Below, one piece after another: positions 5,623 to 42,796 of a stretch of 64,000 nucleotides of DNA. Position 1 is the first letter of the stretch, and every line of letters begins with the position of its first letter. This stretch comes from an uncultured Desulfobacterales bacterium. Its GTDB lineage: Bacteria > Desulfobacterota > DSM-4660 > Desulfatiglandales > HGW-15. Under the pieces are notes generated by a model that worked only from the letters and a program-made list of their open reading frames with translations, was not told the DNA's origin and made no database searches. The position numbers were made by a program, and so were the translations under genes. The stretch covers positions 928-64,927 of the forward strand of contig CAZYJR010000019.1 of assembly GCA_964647905.1 (NCBI GenBank), given 5' to 3'.

Positions 5623-5882
5623 CTTCGCTCACCTCTTGTTGCATCGAGGCCGCCCCGGCCGGGCCTGACCGTTGCCGGCAGGAAGTATAACAGCCCGGCG
5701 CCCCGCCGGCAATCTCGCCCGCTCATGAGAACCGGTCCAATTCAGGGAGCGGTATGCCAATTCGGCCTACCAGCGCCCGGGAGCCGGCCCGAGCCACGGG
5801 CCTTTCCCCGGTCGCTCCGCTGAGTGCAAAAGCGTTCTAAGTTCAAAATGTTATGAATGGATAACGTTTGATTCCGTTTCTT

Positions 5883-38677: not shown

Positions 38678-40186
38678 ATGACAATACCCGTGTCCACATC
38701 CAGGTTATCCGAAAGCCGCCCACACCGTCCCCGGCAGCCCGGGGCCGGCCAACAGACGCGAAAGCCCGAGGCCAAGCAGTTCCGGCTGGTCAAGTTCTTC
38801 GCCTGGGCCAGCTTCATAGTCCTCCTGCTCTTCAGCTTTCCTTTCTCCCTGGCCATATCCCAGAAGGCCAAGGAAATCCTGTTGCGGAGCTACGAGAACT
38901 ACGCCCTCCTGGTGGGACAAAACCTGAACCACCAGGTCTTTCAAAACTTCGCTGTCCCGGTGATAAGGAGGTACGGCAGGATCAAGCTCCGGGAGGAAGA
39001 GCAACAGGAGCTCATGGATAAGATCGTACGCAACACCATCCACGGATTCAAGGTGGACCTGGTGAACATCTACGATATAAGCAAGGGAGTGATCGCCTAC
39101 AGCACTGACCCGCAGCTGATCGGCAGACAGGTGACCAAGACCCCGGGATATGAAAAGGCGGTTCAGGGAGAGCGCTCCTCGGGCCTGATCTCCGAGAACG
39201 ACGACCTCTGGGGCCTTGACCTTGGGATGATGGGCGGCGAGAAAAAGCTCAGGACCTACATCCCGTTTCGGGGGCCGGATCCGTACACGGGGCGCGTCAG
39301 TTACGTGGCCGGGGTCTTCGAGGTGATCCAGGACATGAGCGAGCCTTACGAGTCCATCGTAAGGTTCCAATACCTGGTCTTCGGGCTCTCCATCCTTATC
39401 ATGGGCGCCATCTTCGTGGCGCTGCTGCTCATCGTGAGAAAGGCGGAGACGGTCATAGAAGAAAGGGCCAAGGAGCAGAGGGAGCTCGAGTCCCAGCTCC
39501 ACCAGGCCGAGCGGCTGGCCGCCCTCGGGGAGATGGTGGCCGGCGTCTCCCATGAGATAAAGAACCCACTGGGGATCATTCAGAGCACGGCCGAGCTGCT
39601 TGCCGGGGCCCCTGATGCGGACGAGACCCAGAAGAGGCTCTCAGCGGTCATCAGGGAGGAATCCGCCAGGCTGAACGGTATCGTGACCGAATTCCTGGAC
39701 TTTGCAAGGCCCCAGACGCCCAACCTGCGCGAGACCATGCTGGACGATATCATCAAGAGAAATATCTCCTTCCTCCGCCCGGAGCTGGAGAAAAAGGGAA
39801 TATCCGTGGAGCACAATCTGGACGGCAGACCCCTGGCCCTCCGGGCGGACCCCGACCTGCTCTACAGGGTCTTCCTGAACATCTTCATAAACGCTCTGCA
39901 GGCCATGGAAGGGGGCGGGACCATACGCCTTACGGCCGGGGAGGATCAAGAGGCCTTCACCGTGGAAATCCGGGACACCGGGCCGGGCATTTCCGAGGAG
40001 AACCTCCCCAAGCTCTTCAACCCCTTCTTCACCACCAAGGAGAAAGGCACGGGGCTCGGCCTGTCCATAGTCAAGAAGCTCGTCGAGGCCCATAACGGCG
40101 GGATCGAGGTGGCCAGCGCCCTGGATGAGGGCACCAGGGTTATGCTATATTTGCCCAAGGACCCCGAGTCAAGAGCCAAGGGATAG
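38678..40186 (+). CDS. sensor histidine kinase (two TM segments, ~200-aa extracytoplasmic domain, HisKA + HATPase_c)
   Basis: TM1 FFAWASFIVLLLFSFPFSLAI and TM2 YLVFGLSILIMGAIFVALLLIV. H-box SHEIKNPLG, N-box NIFINALQAM, G-boxes DTGPGI and GTGLGLS. Confidence 0.85.
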   Translation: MTIPVSTSRLSESRPHRPRQPGAGQQTRKPEAKQFRLVKFFAWASFIVLLLFSFPFSLAISQKAKEILLRSYENYALLVGQNLNHQVFQNFAVPVIRRYGRIKLREEEQQELMDKIVRNTIHGFKVDLVNIYDISKGVIAYSTDPQLIGRQVTKTPGYEKAVQGERSSGLISENDDLWGLDLGMMGGEKKLRTYIPFRGPDPYTGRVSYVAGVFEVIQDMSEPYESIVRFQYLVFGLSILIMGAIFVALLLIVRKAETVIEERAKEQRELESQLHQAERLAALGEMVAGVSHEIKNPLGIIQSTAELLAGAPDADETQKRLSAVIREESARLNGIVTEFLDFARPQTPNLRETMLDDIIKRNISFLRPELEKKGISVEHNLDGRPLALRADPDLLYRVFLNIFINALQAMEGGGTIRLTAGEDQEAFTVEIRDTGPGISEENLPKLFNPFFTTKEKGTGLGLSIVKKLVEAHNGGIEVASALDEGTRVMLYLPKDPESRAKG

Positions 40187-40188
40187 TT

Positions 40189-41553
40189 ATGGATACCATA
40201 CTGATAGTGGACGATGAGAAAAATTACCTGGTGGTGCTTGAGGCCCTTCTGGGGCCGGAGGGCTATGAGATATTGACAGCCGGGACCGGGCGGGAGGCGC
40301 TGCACCACATAAGGGAATCCGACGTGGACCTGGTTATTACGGATATGAAGATGCCGGGAATAAGCGGGATGGAGCTCTTGGAAGAGGCCAAGAAGATCAA
40401 GCCGGATCTCCCGGTGATAATGATGACCGCCTACGGGACCATTGAGATGGCGGTCGAAGCCATGAAGAAACAAGCGTTTGATTACATAACAAAGCCCTTC
40501 CAAAACGAGGAGCTCAAGCTGACCGTCAGAAAGGCCCTGGAGAATTACCGCCTGATAAGGGAGAACCAGCGGTTGAGCGAGGAGCTCCTCTCCAGGTACC
40601 GCTACGGCAACATAATCGGCAAGAGCAAGCCCATGAGGCAGGTCTTTGACCTGATCTCCAAGGTCTCTCAGTCCAAGGCCTCGGTAATGATAACCGGGCC
40701 CTCGGGTACGGGCAAGGAGCTGATAGCCAAGGCCATTCACTACAACAGCCCCAGGAGCGGGTATCCCTTTGTGTCCATCAACTGCGGCGCTCTCACCGAG
40801 ACCCTCCTGGAGAGCGAGCTTTTCGGACACGAAAGAGGGGCCTTCACCGGGGCCACATCCATGAAAAAGGGACGCTTCGAGATGGCCGACGGAGGCACCT
40901 TGTTTCTGGATGAAGTCGGCGACATGCCTCAATCGCTGCAGGTCAAGCTGCTGAGGGTCCTCCAGGAGATGGAATTCGAACGGGTGGGGGGGACCCGCAC
41001 CATGAAGGTCGATGTGAGGGTCCTTTCGGCCTCCAATCGAAACATCAAGGAGGACGTGGCCAGGGAGGCCTTCCGTGAGGACCTCTTCTACAGGCTGAAC
41101 GTGATCCATATAGAGGTCCCGCCGCTGGCCGAACGCACCGACGATATAAAGCTGCTGGTGAATCACTTCATAGAGAAATACACCCGGGATGAAAACAGGC
41201 CGTCCGTGGAATTGAGCCCTGATGCCTGGAAGGCCATTTACCAATACCACTGGCCGGGGAATGTGCGTGAATTGGAAAACGTGATAGAGCGGGCGGTGGT
41301 GCTGAATACGGACGGCGTGATCAGGCCCGAGGACCTCCCCCACGAGATCACCCGGGAGCACGCGGAGCTCCCTGTGGAGCGCTTCATACCGCTGGACGCC
41401 CCCCTGCAGGGGACACTGGAGCAGGTGGAAGAGAAGCTCATCCGGAGGGCCCTGCGCCACTGCGAGAATGTACAGGCACACGCAGCGGCCATGCTGGGGA
41501 TAACCAAGAGCTTGATGCAGCACAAGATGAAGAAGTACAACATCACAGTGTGA
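40189..41553 (+). CDS. sigma54-dependent response regulator (REC-AAA+-Fis HTH; NtrC/AtoC class enhancer-binding protein)
   Basis: REC domain (ILIVDDE..DLVITDMKMPG), Walker A GPSGTGKE, the sigma54-contact GAFTGA motif (ERGAFTGA), and a C-terminal HTH ..NVQAHAAAMLGITKSLMQHKMKKY... It starts 3 nt after the kinase stop. Confidence 0.9.
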   Translation: MDTILIVDDEKNYLVVLEALLGPEGYEILTAGTGREALHHIRESDVDLVITDMKMPGISGMELLEEAKKIKPDLPVIMMTAYGTIEMAVEAMKKQAFDYITKPFQNEELKLTVRKALENYRLIRENQRLSEELLSRYRYGNIIGKSKPMRQVFDLISKVSQSKASVMITGPSGTGKELIAKAIHYNSPRSGYPFVSINCGALTETLLESELFGHERGAFTGATSMKKGRFEMADGGTLFLDEVGDMPQSLQVKLLRVLQEMEFERVGGTRTMKVDVRVLSASNRNIKEDVAREAFREDLFYRLNVIHIEVPPLAERTDDIKLLVNHFIEKYTRDENRPSVELSPDAWKAIYQYHWPGNVRELENVIERAVVLNTDGVIRPEDLPHEITREHAELPVERFIPLDAPLQGTLEQVEEKLIRRALRHCENVQAHAAAMLGITKSLMQHKMKKYNITV

Positions 41554-41634
41554 GGGGTTTAAGATTTTGAACCTGGTAGTTCCTTATGCTTATCAGCGTG
41601 TTAGGCCGGTTACCGCACCGGGGCGATCCATTGC

Positions 41635-41652
41635 GGTACAAACTATTGTACC
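41635..41652. promoter_or_regulatory. perfect 7-4-7 inverted repeat GGTACAA-ACTA-TTGTACC (candidate enhancer/UAS for the adjacent EBP)
   Basis: Read directly from the sequence. The repeat centre lies ~110 bp upstream of the -24 element at 41753, a typical EBP-to-promoter distance. Confidence 0.45.
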
Positions 41653-41751
41653 CGCCGGCTTTGGCGGGCGGGAGCCGCTTTCGGGGGCGTTTACTCAAAA
41701 AGCCAGTAAAAAAGAGGTCTTGTGATCGAACTCCGGTCGGGGTGACCGGTT

Positions 41752-41767
41752 TGGCAAAGATGTTGCA
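41752..41767 (+). promoter_or_regulatory. sigma54 (-24/-12) promoter
   Basis: TGGCA-AAGATG-TTGCA has GG at 41753-41754 and GC at 41765-41766 in the exact consensus register (TGGCACG-N4-TTGCW). No protein-coding gene lies downstream on this strand. Confidence 0.6.
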
Positions 41768-41777
41768 GCACCGGAAG

Positions 41778-41845
41778 ATCAAACGGAAACGAACTCTTTC
41801 CTCCTAAAAGGAACCGACCCCACTCCCAGGGTCGGTTCTTTTTTT
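41778..41845 (+). ncRNA. candidate sigma54-dependent small RNA (~68 nt)
   Basis: It is bounded by the predicted TSS, ~12 nt after the -12 GC, and by a strong intrinsic terminator. The 5' ~33 nt (AUCAAACGGAAACGAACUCUUUCCUCCUAAAAG) has no ATG and contains an anti-SD-like UUUCCUCCU. Not checked against Rfam. Confidence 0.45.
41811..41845 (+). terminator. intrinsic terminator (also usable from the minus strand for era)
   Basis: GAACCGACCC-cactccca-GGGTCGGTTC forms a 10-bp perfect stem followed by T7 (41839-41845). On the minus strand the same stem is followed by CUUUUA, 12 nt after the era stop. Confidence 0.8.
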
Positions 41846-41856
41846 CCGGGGGGAGT

Positions 41857-42771
41857 TCAGTATCCGAGACGCCTCATGGCCTTGGCATCGCGGGTCCAGT
41901 TCTTCTCCACCCTGACGCTCAGGTCCAGGTAGACGCGGCTCCCGAACCTCTTCTCCAGGTCCTTTCGCGCCCTCTCTCCTATCCCCCGGACCATGGCCCC
42001 GCCCCTGCCCACCAGGATCTTCTTTTGAGAAGTATTCTCCACGTGAATCCAGGCCGAGATGTAGAGAGGCCGCCCCCCCCCTCGCTCTTCGATTTCGTCC
42101 ACCGTCACCGCCGTTGTGTAGGGCAGCTCCTGGCGCACCAGGGCATAGACCTTTTCCCTTATGATCTCGGCCGCCATGAACTCCTCGGTCTGGTCGGTGT
42201 CCATGTCCTCGGGGAACAAGGGCGGCCCCGGCCGGAGGCGCACTCGGATCTCCCCGAGCAGCAGGTCCAAACCATCCCCCTGAAGAGCTGAAACGGGAAT
42301 CAAGGCCTCGAAGGGGTAGCGCGCCGCATAGGAGTCCATAACGGGCAGGAGGACCTCCTTGGGCCTGGTGTCTATCTTGTTGATTATCAGTATTGCGGGT
42401 CGGCCGCTGCGCCTCAATCGGGAAAAAAGGGTCTCCATGTCCGGATGGTCGGGCCGGCCGGCCTCGACCATGACAGCCACCAGGTCCACTTCATCGAAGG
42501 CCTCCTGAGCCGAGGCCACCATGCTGCGATGAAGTGATGTCCGGGTCCGATGGATGCCCGGTGTATCCATGAAGACCACCTGGCAGCCCTCTTCGTGAAG
42601 GACCCCCAGGATACGGTTCCGCGTGGTCTGGGGCTTTGGGGATACAATGGCCACCTTCCGGCCGAGGATCCGGTTGAGGAGGGTGGACTTGCCCACATTG
42701 GGCGGTCCCACCAGAGCCACGAATCCCGCGCGGAACTCCACCTGTTCGCTGTTCCCGAGGCTTTGTTTCAT
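41857..42771 (-). CDS. era: GTPase Era
   Basis: ..GFVALVGPPNVGKSTLLN.. G1 motif, DTPG, NKID, and a C-terminal KH domain. The start is taken at MKQSLGN (ATG 42771). The track ORF's 82-aa extension is discarded. Confidence 0.9.
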   Translation of the reverse strand: MKQSLGNSEQVEFRAGFVALVGPPNVGKSTLLNRILGRKVAIVSPKPQTTRNRILGVLHEEGCQVVFMDTPGIHRTRTSLHRSMVASAQEAFDEVDLVAVMVEAGRPDHPDMETLFSRLRRSGRPAILIINKIDTRPKEVLLPVMDSYAARYPFEALIPVSALQGDGLDLLLGEIRVRLRPGPPLFPEDMDTDQTEEFMAAEIIREKVYALVRQELPYTTAVTVDEIEERGGGRPLYISAWIHVENTSQKKILVGRGGAMVRGIGERARKDLEKRFGSRVYLDLSVRVEKNWTRDAKAMRRLGY

Positions 42772-42796
42772 GTTCCGGACTTTCTCCCTCAAAAGG

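Follow-up and report, generated by a model that had tools for sequence, protein, structure and literature searches.

A conserved, predicted sigma-54-dependent small RNA beside a kinase/activator gene pair of Desulfobacterota, with porin mRNA as its best candidate target

What is encoded in the gap that follows a two-component gene pair in an uncultured Desulfobacterales bacterium? We analyzed a stretch of 64 kb ("the window"; 64,000 nt of contig CAZYJR010000019.1, assembly GCA_964647905.1). In it, the genes for a sensor histidine kinase and a sigma-54 enhancer-binding response regulator ("the activator") are followed by an intergenic region (41554-41856) and then, on the opposite strand, by era. 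An earlier reading of the same DNA (the original prediction) had placed a palindrome, a sigma-54 promoter and a transcription terminator in this region, and had proposed that they produce a small RNA (sRNA) able to pair with ribosome-binding sites (RBSs). All three elements were found where they had been placed, and the interpretation is supported by computational evidence. We propose that the region encodes a sigma-54-dependent, trans-acting, base-pairing sRNA whose best candidate target is a porin mRNA. We give this reading as a whole a probability of roughly 0.6.

The predicted sRNA gene and its control region

In the putative promoter (Table 1), GG and GC are 12 nt apart, the register of sigma-54 -24/-12 elements. 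The claim of exact register was borne out: TGGCA-N6-TTGCW has a single exact match in the 64 kb, counting both strands, where 0.18 would be expected by chance. At least one exact match was present in 13 of 100 shuffled windows. Read from its sequence alone, a single window offers moderate statistical support, and the real support is the conservation of all the elements in orthologous loci.

We found the same elements next to orthologous activator genes. The activator protein was scanned against one genome per species, giving 80 loci (labeled L001 onward) with 83-56% identity. All 80 are from Desulfobacterota: metagenome-assembled genomes (MAGs) of Desulfobacterales, Desulfatiglandales and Desulfobaccales, and Desulfatibacillum alkenivorans DSM 16219. 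Where the activator is at least 64% identical, nearly all loci have TGGCA(A/G)-N5-TTGC(A/T) ~197 nt past the activator stop codon. The promoter, a CCUCC motif and a terminator lie 3' of the orthologous gene pair in all 33 close loci with downstream sequence. Between the promoter and ACTCTTTCCTCCTAA are 12-40 variable nt, and ACTCTTTCCTCCTAA is followed by a hairpin, with a locus-specific stem, and a T-tract.

A covariance model was built from 32 orthologues and run over the window and the 80 loci. It gave a single full-length match in the window (41776-41842, 61.5 bits, E = 1e-12), with no second copy. Each of the 33 close loci gave one match, and nine of the more distant ones gave weaker matches. 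In another four distant loci a version of the sRNA is recognizable by eye, for a total of roughly a dozen of about 46 distant loci. Two loci have two tandem sigma-54 promoter-sRNA units per activator gene (L044, 5750-5857 and 5951-6092; L047, 5768-5874 and 5969-6112); the second copy, at ~116 nt, exceeds the first in length and differs from it in its 5' part.

The palindrome described in the original prediction (UAS2, the proximal site) stands, and it is conserved next to orthologous activators at a fixed distance from the promoter. The description was incomplete, since a second, degenerate palindrome (UAS1, the distal site) and a perfect integration host factor (IHF)-like site had been overlooked. 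UAS1 and UAS2 are the only matches to the palindrome motif at up to three mismatches in the 64 kb; therefore nothing else in the window belongs to the regulon. Among orthologues, the center of UAS2 is 105-109 bp 5' of the promoter TGG. UAS1 starts 3-9 nt past the stop codon and is centered 183-188 bp 5' of the TGG, and the two palindromes are 77-79 bp apart. With centers ~107 and ~185 bp from the promoter, both predicted sites are in the range of sigma-54 activator sites (80-200 bp).

Of 32 close loci, 16 have an IHF-like site (at most one mismatch) in the interval from UAS1 to UAS2, mostly near -160. Another is at -41 from the TGG in 24 of the 32, and this window is without it. The background frequency of such sites is 4.75% of 60-nt segments, which makes them enriched at these fixed positions. 

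Several features of this control region were seen in addition. The strict 77-79-bp spacing corresponds to ~7.4 helical turns, with the IHF-like site in between. Three loci (L010, L011 and L071) have three palindromes upstream of the sRNA promoter, not two, and the step is again ~77 bp. In L027, L030, L031 and L032 the half-sites become GTTAAA or GTTACA at both UAS positions, as expected of sites read by one protein; this suggests that the recognition helix of the activator and its sites co-evolve. Between UAS2 and the promoter, the window has GC-rich inverted repeats (CCCGCC...GGCGGG and GCCGC...GGGGC, 41651-41695). These have no T-tract after them, are not conserved in the AT-rich spacers of orthologous loci, and occupy the region of the -41 IHF-like site of other loci.

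Table 1. Positions of the predicted elements and neighboring genes in the 64-kb window
Feature	Position	Strand	Basis or detail
UAS1, distal activator-binding palindrome (predicted), GGTTTAAGATTTTGAACC	41556-41573	.	3 mismatches to GGTACAA-N4-TTGTACC
IHF-like site TATCAGCGTGTTA, perfect to consensus WATCARNNNNTTR, between UAS1 and UAS2	41591-41603	+	consensus match
UAS2, proximal activator-binding palindrome (predicted), GGTACAAACTATTGTACC (GGTACAA-ACTA-TTGTACC, perfect)	41635-41652	.	sequence and conservation
Putative sigma-54 promoter TGGCAAAGATGTTGCA	41752-41767	+	-24 GG at 41753-54, -12 GC at 41765-66
Predicted sRNA, ~68 nt	41778-41845	+	5' end inferred from promoter geometry; 3' end at T-tract
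Putative seed CUCUUUCCUCCUAA, 14 nt, complementary to UUAGGAGGAAAGAG	41794-41807	+	alignment conservation
Intrinsic terminator, 10-11-bp stem and U7	stem 41811-41838, T-tract to 41845	+	fold and covariation
Sensor histidine kinase	38678-40186	+	Pfam HisKA and HATPase_c
Sigma-54 enhancer-binding response regulator (REC, AAA+, Fis-type helix-turn-helix)	40189-41553	+	Pfam and GAFTGA
era (GTPase and KH domain), convergent neighbor	41857-42773	-	Pfam MMR_HSR1 and KH_2

We found that the predicted transcript ends in a hairpin whose helix covaries. The region 41778-41846 folds with -26.4 kcal/mol (z = -4.9). The hairpin arms are GGAACCGACC...GGTCGGTTCT, from 41811; a simple terminator scan missed them because the loop is longer than 8 nt. 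RNAalifold gave the terminator as the only consensus helix, with 96.9% of cells paired and compensatory changes in 11 of 11 pairs. The covariation score was reached by 0 of 500 shuffles, and all slid controls collapsed. Most sRNA copies have a tail of U5-U10.

Could this be the 3' end of another transcript? The kinase/activator operon or the era operon might simply end here at a shared bidirectional terminator, the promoter-like motif being idle or giving only a by-product. The hairpin could also terminate era, since the stop codon of that gene is 11 nt away and UUUU comes after the hairpin on the minus strand; in addition, minus-strand terminator halves score with the covariance model. In most loci there is also no obvious terminator between the activator gene and the promoter. 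A terminator, however, needs neither the promoter, nor the palindromes at their fixed distances, nor the 14-nt motif. All of these are conserved, and the motif is far more conserved than the terminator stem. Two loci have the tandem promoter-sRNA units described above. Among the close loci, L001 and L025 have an intact module without era as a neighbor, as do all the distant loci. Because it persists without era, we rejected the view that the sRNA is a mere era terminator, and we regard an operon end of either kind as very unlikely.

A protein-coding function was also rejected. The intergenic region has ORFs (open reading frames) of 73 aa on the plus strand and 79 aa on the minus strand, and no intergenic ORF has a conserved position or strand in 42 related loci, where the longest ORFs differ between loci (median 48 aa). 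This agrees with the earlier statement that the gap holds no credible ORF. The predicted transcript contains no ATG, GTG or TTG, also as had been stated. The minus strand carries a perfect Shine-Dalgarno (SD) sequence, AGGAGG, yet no start codon is at a usable, consistent distance from it in the close clade. Neither a small protein nor an antisense ORF was retained as a candidate.

The original prediction had not recognized a described sRNA family, and a search of Rfam agreed: no family reached threshold at the region when the whole window was searched with gathering cutoffs, and relaxing the search of the region to E up to 10 yielded only sub-threshold matches, the best being STnc240 (25.4 bits against a gathering score of 55), which aligns on the terminator only. 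Elsewhere in the window, a tRNA gene (2620-2693) was the sole Rfam match at the gathering threshold.

Based on these results we consider it very probable that this is a genuine and conserved gene whose control region is of the sigma-54/activator type. Its conserved synteny, in all of the close loci and part of the distant ones, and the covariation of its terminator both favor the original prediction.

The putative seed and its candidate target

If the gene encodes an sRNA, what does the RNA do? The putative seed is far better conserved than the terminator stem, and its flanks vary in length and sequence. Among 32 aligned copies, the block C-T-C-T-T-T-(C/T)-C-T-C-C (the 11-nt core, C17-C27) has nine invariant columns and two more at 90% or above. 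One variant of the seed is CUCUUUUCUCC. The seed is unpaired in the RNAalifold consensus structure; its mean unpaired probability is 0.52 in this window and 0.64 at the median of the copies. The 5' part of the RNA is A-rich, with ARN-like repeats in many copies, and an A-rich 5' part together with a U-tail is compatible with, though no proof of, dependence on Hfq or another chaperone.

These properties bear on whether the RNA might bind a protein such as Hfq, CsrA or a component of the ribosome, or mimic the 3' end of 16S rRNA, without pairing to specific mRNAs. CCUCCU(A/U)A does resemble the anti-SD tail of 16S rRNA, the A-rich 5' part has its ARN-like repeats, and sigma-54-dependent protein-sequestering sRNAs exist (GlmY, CrcZ). 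On the other side, neither GGA nor A-rich repeats are conserved in register. Conservation of one short single-stranded motif is instead the pattern of a pairing seed. Furthermore, lineage-specific changes in distant copies (below) keep an image of SD-spacer-AUG-Lys-Lys, which fits pairing and not a protein site. Protein binding or mimicry appears to us highly improbable, the least probable of the alternatives. We think it likely that the sRNA acts by RBS occlusion through the conserved motif.

We scanned metagenomes for the exact seed complement followed by a start codon (TTAGGAGGAAAGAG-N0-4-ATG). The scan gave at least 120 loci, with 99 downstream ORFs of at least 60 aa among the matches listed. 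One protein family accounted for 31 of these 99 ORFs, with a median pairwise identity of 33% (range 21-74%). Every other cluster among the matches listed had at most five members, and most of these were 75-99% identical, that is, one species recovered several times. Between the 14-mer and the ATG, the spacer was TT or TA in 26 of the 31 family members, compared to 6 of 89 other matches listed. Just 5' of the motif, the sRNA consensus is AAUUA, and this window has AA. These bases match the TT/TA spacer, and predicted pairing therefore covers 16-18 bp, as far as the start codon.

The family has the characteristics of an outer-membrane porin. Its members start with MKKL..., have a signal peptide and end with a C-terminal Phe. 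An AlphaFold2 model (predicted local distance difference test, pLDDT, 90.7) is an all-beta barrel, modeled as a 16-strand porin. Its best Foldseek matches in the PDB were DcaP, Vibrio cholerae OmpT, Omp32, PorB and OmpF (E = 1e-14 to 1e-8). Among the 408 relatives given by a homologue search, some, from Deltaproteobacteria, Desulfobacteraceae or Desulfobacterales MAGs, bear the name 'porin', and a precomputed Porin_4 assignment is attached to several. Pfam and NCBIfam mostly gave no match on the porins, apart from one weak DESULF_POR1 and one Alginate_exp. From the modeled fold, we identify the family that bears the 14-mer as a general porin.

To remove selection bias, we took 12 porin homologues by protein similarity and length of contig, without regard to their RBSs. 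The exact 14-mer was present in four of the 12 and was present with one mismatch in two more, and AGGAGGAAA was present in all 12. The window sRNA and the exact-match porin sites form a continuous predicted duplex of 17 bp, at about -27 kcal/mol. Five of the 11 homologue sites that were scored paired better than the best of 400 random window 60-mers (-22.7 kcal/mol). The anti-SD reading in the original prediction is thus strengthened by a conserved complementary site in porin genes.

Distant copies of the sRNA point in the same direction. The reverse complements of L048, L049, L060, L059, L071, L078, L072, L063, L054, L044 and L047 read SD, 6-7 nt, ATG, AAG, AAA and then hydrophobic codons. 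The encoded starts are MKKFL, MKKSF, MMKKML, MKIFL and MKYFF. The motif and flanks of these sRNAs differ from those of this window. Such an image of the start of a secreted-protein gene would be hard to explain except by selection for pairing. Antisense 'MKKFL' ORFs in these copies were considered as genes and rejected; they are better read as the image of the target gene's start. In D. alkenivorans (L063), a seed complement, GGGAGGAAAGAGTAAG, is also present on the plus strand (~5650-5668) just 5' of the sRNA promoter, and it shows as a weak reverse-strand match to the covariance model (5630-5679, minus strand, 17 bits). It may be the remnant of an inverted copy or a cis decoy.

Is the porin match incidental? 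The sRNA could be a real sigma-54-dependent, base-pairing RNA whose motif acts on many strong RBSs or on other specific targets. Every strong SD with an A-rich spacer is a complement of UUUCCUCCU, and in the unselected porins the universal element is AGGAGGAAA, with the full 14-mer in only four. The metagenome scan was itself conditioned on the 14-mer, and no single genome was seen with both sRNA and porin. Among the 99 listed ORFs with the 14-mer, however, only the porin family recurs across divergent sequences, and the match runs 6-9 nt past the SD into the family-specific spacer and start codon. An exact 14-mer at a fixed position in four of 12 homologues that are 40-55% identical to the query porin cannot be chance. 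The distant sRNAs, too, mirror ATG AAG AAA and hydrophobic codons, the start of a secreted protein. We judge an incidental match unlikely. The odds somewhat favor a general porin as the main target of the sRNA.

Several observations count against this proposal. First, the 5' end of the predicted transcript is taken from promoter geometry; in this window, 5 nt of the seed can pair in a weak 5' hairpin. Second, no sRNA of this kind was seen within 4 kb in about 30 loci whose activator is 56-63% identical; these probably represent a different orthologous group of activators. Third, because the scan demanded the exact 14-mer (at least 120 loci), the fraction 31/99 is not an unbiased frequency. Half of the unselected porin homologues have another spacer (GGAGGAAATGAAG and similar), with pairing of only -15 to -19.5 kcal/mol; a further porin RBS variant is GGAGAAAAGAG. 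An abundant porin is expected to have a strong A-rich RBS anyway; selection for translation could therefore account for part of the match. Fourth, the complementary porin RBS is known from the same phylum, and sRNA and porin were never seen in one genome: a UBA-type porin homologue is in assembly DNQB01, not in DIKH01, the assembly of sRNA locus L025. The 64-kb window contains no porin gene and no RBS that matches the seed complement at up to three mismatches.

Targets within the window were considered separately. A duplex scan of 59 ORF starts in the window gave internal or implausible starts only. Feedback on neighboring genes was rejected as well. In orthologous loci, the translation starts of kinase, activator, era, radical SAM and rnc paired no better than background: the medians were -7 to -11 kcal/mol, and the 5th percentile of the background was -12.3 kcal/mol.

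The porin leaders have features of their own. A second SD-like element, GAAAGGAGGTGA, is found 71-106 nt 5' of the ATG in leaders of L081-L214 (for example, L214, 1417-1428). It is an exact complement of the 16S rRNA 3' end and is present in 27 of the 32 leaders that are long enough to show it, compared to 0.6% of control segments. It may be a 5' stabilizer or a ribosome standby site. Most leaders (L081-L200) also have (A)CTTTCT in the 6 nt directly 5' of the SD, abutting TTAGGAGGAAAGAG. As judged by complementarity, this CUUUCU may pair with GGAAAG of the same RBS, giving the porin mRNA its own seed-like anti-SD element in cis.

These leaders and the distant sRNAs together allow a more specific idea, which we hold to be doubtful and offer tentatively. 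The sRNA might be an evolving antisense image of each lineage's porin SD-spacer-AUG-Lys-Lys and thus a dedicated, single-target shut-off switch. Its target would be a double-SD porin leader, with a 16S-complementary GAAAGGAGGUGA 71-106 nt upstream and CUUUCU abutting the true SD. If this were true, the sRNA, the cis anti-SD element and the ribosome would compete for one site, and the kinase/activator/non-coding RNA (ncRNA) modules of sulfate reducers, known since 2011, would have their first assigned function.

Two further observations concern the porin genes. A ~550-aa protein with FG-GAP/VCBS repeats (PF13517) adjoins the porin, on either strand, in seven of the 12 unselected loci (L201, L202, L206-L208, L210 and L212), and this protein may be a functional partner that is conserved. 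A great many of the metagenome contigs with a porin measure 1.1-1.4 kb, just the gene. Assemblies seem to break at both porin ends, perhaps from a leader and terminator shared by paralogues or strains.

The kinase, the activator and neighboring genes

What signal might control the sRNA? Pfam gave no family for the N-terminal half of the kinase and no HAMP domain. The extracytoplasmic domain, between two transmembrane helices, is ~170 aa and not the ~200 aa originally stated. An AlphaFold2 model of residues 31-260 (from 32 homologues; pLDDT 83.5) has a long helix followed by a PAS-like alpha/beta fold. Its top PDB matches were the extracellular domain of WalK/YycG (E = 5e-7 to 7e-6; TM-score 0.64-0.71 on the target), with the CitA PDC domain ranking after them. 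On this model, the fold class of the sensor domain is PDC/Cache-like; the model says nothing about the ligand.

The kinase and activator are co-conserved in loci with upstream sequence. The activator has the Pfam domains Response_reg, Sigma54_activat (2.6e-72), AAA_lid_14 and HTH_8. Its AAA+ domain holds the GAFTGA loop, as ERGAFTGA, and the gene ends with TGA at 41551-41553. In our proposal, the sRNA is the local output of the adjacent two-component system and possibly its only one.

The gene order in the close clade is purD, radical SAM, kinase, activator, sRNA, era, radical SAM, rnc, and era is syntenic across most of this clade. In the window, era closes an rnc-radical SAM-era operon, and its probable start is the ATG at 42771. 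The era stop codon (41857-41859) is 11 nt past the T-tract, and the minus-strand side of the hairpin runs into UUUU. From this arrangement, the sRNA terminator can plausibly also serve the convergent era transcript. With the terminator this close to the stop codon, the era 3' untranslated region and the 3' half of the sRNA must be complementary, which may allow antisense interaction or transcriptional interference.

A proposed circuit and its relation to known systems

How might these parts work together? In the circuit that we propose, the kinase would sense an extracytoplasmic signal through its WalK/PDC-like domain, as predicted from the fold, and would phosphorylate the activator, as expected from the domain families of the two proteins. 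The activator would bind the two GGTACAA-N4-TTGTACC palindromes, whose sites and spacing are conserved. IHF-like sites would bend the DNA, and the activator would open the sigma-54 promoter complex. The predicted transcript of ~68 nt, a gene structure drawn from conservation and covariation, would consist of an A-rich 5' end, the single-stranded CUCUUUCCUCCUAA and the intrinsic terminator. The seed would pair over 14-18 nt with the region from the SD to the start codon of the target mRNA and block ribosomes, and pairing would probably trigger decay of the mRNA. The best candidate target is the mRNA of the general outer-membrane porin of Desulfobacterota, with the RBS UUAGGAGGAAAGAG-U(U/A)-AUG. 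With porin mRNA as the target, an envelope or external signal would, through this circuit, reduce the synthesis of porin.

Desulfobacterota have unusually many sigma-54 activators, and several of those in Desulfovibrio vulgaris control only an adjacent ncRNA of unassigned function. The sRNA family described here spans several orders of uncultured and cultured sulfate reducers and has a full set of predicted regulatory parts: a sensor, an activator, two binding sites, a promoter, a seed and a terminator. The candidate general porin is the first specific, testable target for this class of modules. D. alkenivorans DSM 16219 is a cultured carrier (L063; NZ_FQZU01000006.1, sRNA near 181.0 kb), and the prediction is therefore directly testable. 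Carriers on long MAG contigs include L021 (CAXXXE010000003), L019, L029 and L054. If it is true, sRNA control of outer-membrane permeability by RBS occlusion arose independently in Desulfobacterota, on sigma-54/two-component wiring. It would also provide a handle on porin regulation in organisms important for the sulfur cycle, corrosion and hydrocarbon degradation.

The closest precedents for the layout are in D. vulgaris Hildenborough, and the layout is therefore less novel than was claimed: sigma-54 regulators with an ncRNA target just downstream are already documented there (PMC3333781, PMC4641369). DVU0679 binds three palindromes upstream of Dv_sRNA2, just 3' of its own gene, as found by DNA-affinity-purified chip (DAP-chip) analysis and electrophoretic mobility shift assay (EMSA) (PMC3333781, Rajeev et al. 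2011); the function of Dv_sRNA2 was stated to be unknown (PMC3333781). Four ncRNAs appear in the reconstructed sigma-54 regulome of D. vulgaris, and two of these follow DVU0653 and DVU0679 (PMC4641369, Kazakov et al. 2015); the sigma-54 promoters of these two are at genome positions 724743 and 750515. Our locus shares with these two modules a sigma-54 two-component regulator, an ncRNA (predicted in our case) as a target directly 3', two to three palindromes, a sigma-54 promoter and an origin in sulfate reducers of the former Deltaproteobacteria.

The activator differs from both regulators. Among 36 sigma-54 activators of D. vulgaris, its DNA-binding domain is closest to that of DVU3305 (26 of 42 residues identical), and DVU0653 and DVU0679 are outside the eight closest. 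The D. vulgaris motifs are CGTGCG-N4-CGCACG and TGTCCGC-N4-GCGGACA, compared to GGTACAA-N4-TTGTACC here. Set apart by its DNA-binding domain and by the published binding motifs, the activator is, at the level of sequence, not orthologous to DVU0653 or DVU0679. Papers on the two ncRNAs propose neither a seed nor a target (PMC3333781, PMC4641369). DVU3305 belongs to the DVU3303-3305 'general stress' three-component system, which is the nearest by DNA-binding domain. It has GAFSGA, binds TGTTGC-N5-GCAACA, occurs with a Lon-protease response regulator and controls protein-coding operons, none of which is true of our locus. In the literature on sigma-54 sRNAs in Desulfovibrio and Deltaproteobacteria, and on RpoN-dependent sRNAs and porins, we found neither a description of this sRNA nor any sigma-54-controlled sRNA that represses a porin. 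The sRNA is a new family, outside Rfam, of an already documented layout, an activator with an adjacent ncRNA.

The wiring also resembles that of LuxO-Qrr in Vibrio and GlrK/GlrR-GlmY in Enterobacteria, in which a phosphorylated NtrC-class activator drives an sRNA from a sigma-54 promoter. The sRNA gene adjoins the activator gene in qrr1-luxO and glmY-glrKR. Qrr pairs through a conserved single-stranded region and targets quorum-sensing regulators, whereas GlmY works by protein mimicry, and LuxO-Qrr is the closest functional analogue for wiring. The sRNA of the window has no sequence or structure relation to Qrr or GlmY (Rfam, E up to 10), and its system has another sensor domain and is from other taxa.

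In its proposed task, the sRNA is closest to MicF, MicC, MicA, RybB and OmrA/B of Enterobacteria and VrrA of Vibrio, short sRNAs with intrinsic terminators which pair across the RBS of mRNAs for abundant outer-membrane proteins under the control of EnvZ-OmpR or sigma-E. It has no homology to them (Rfam), and it would be controlled by a sigma-54 activator and not by sigma-E or OmpR. The pairing proposed for our sRNA, with its computational target, is centered on the SD and is unusually long and perfect (14-18 nt). As in regulation by MicF, MicA, RybB, OmrAB and VrrA, the outcome would be occlusion of a porin RBS under envelope-sensing control.

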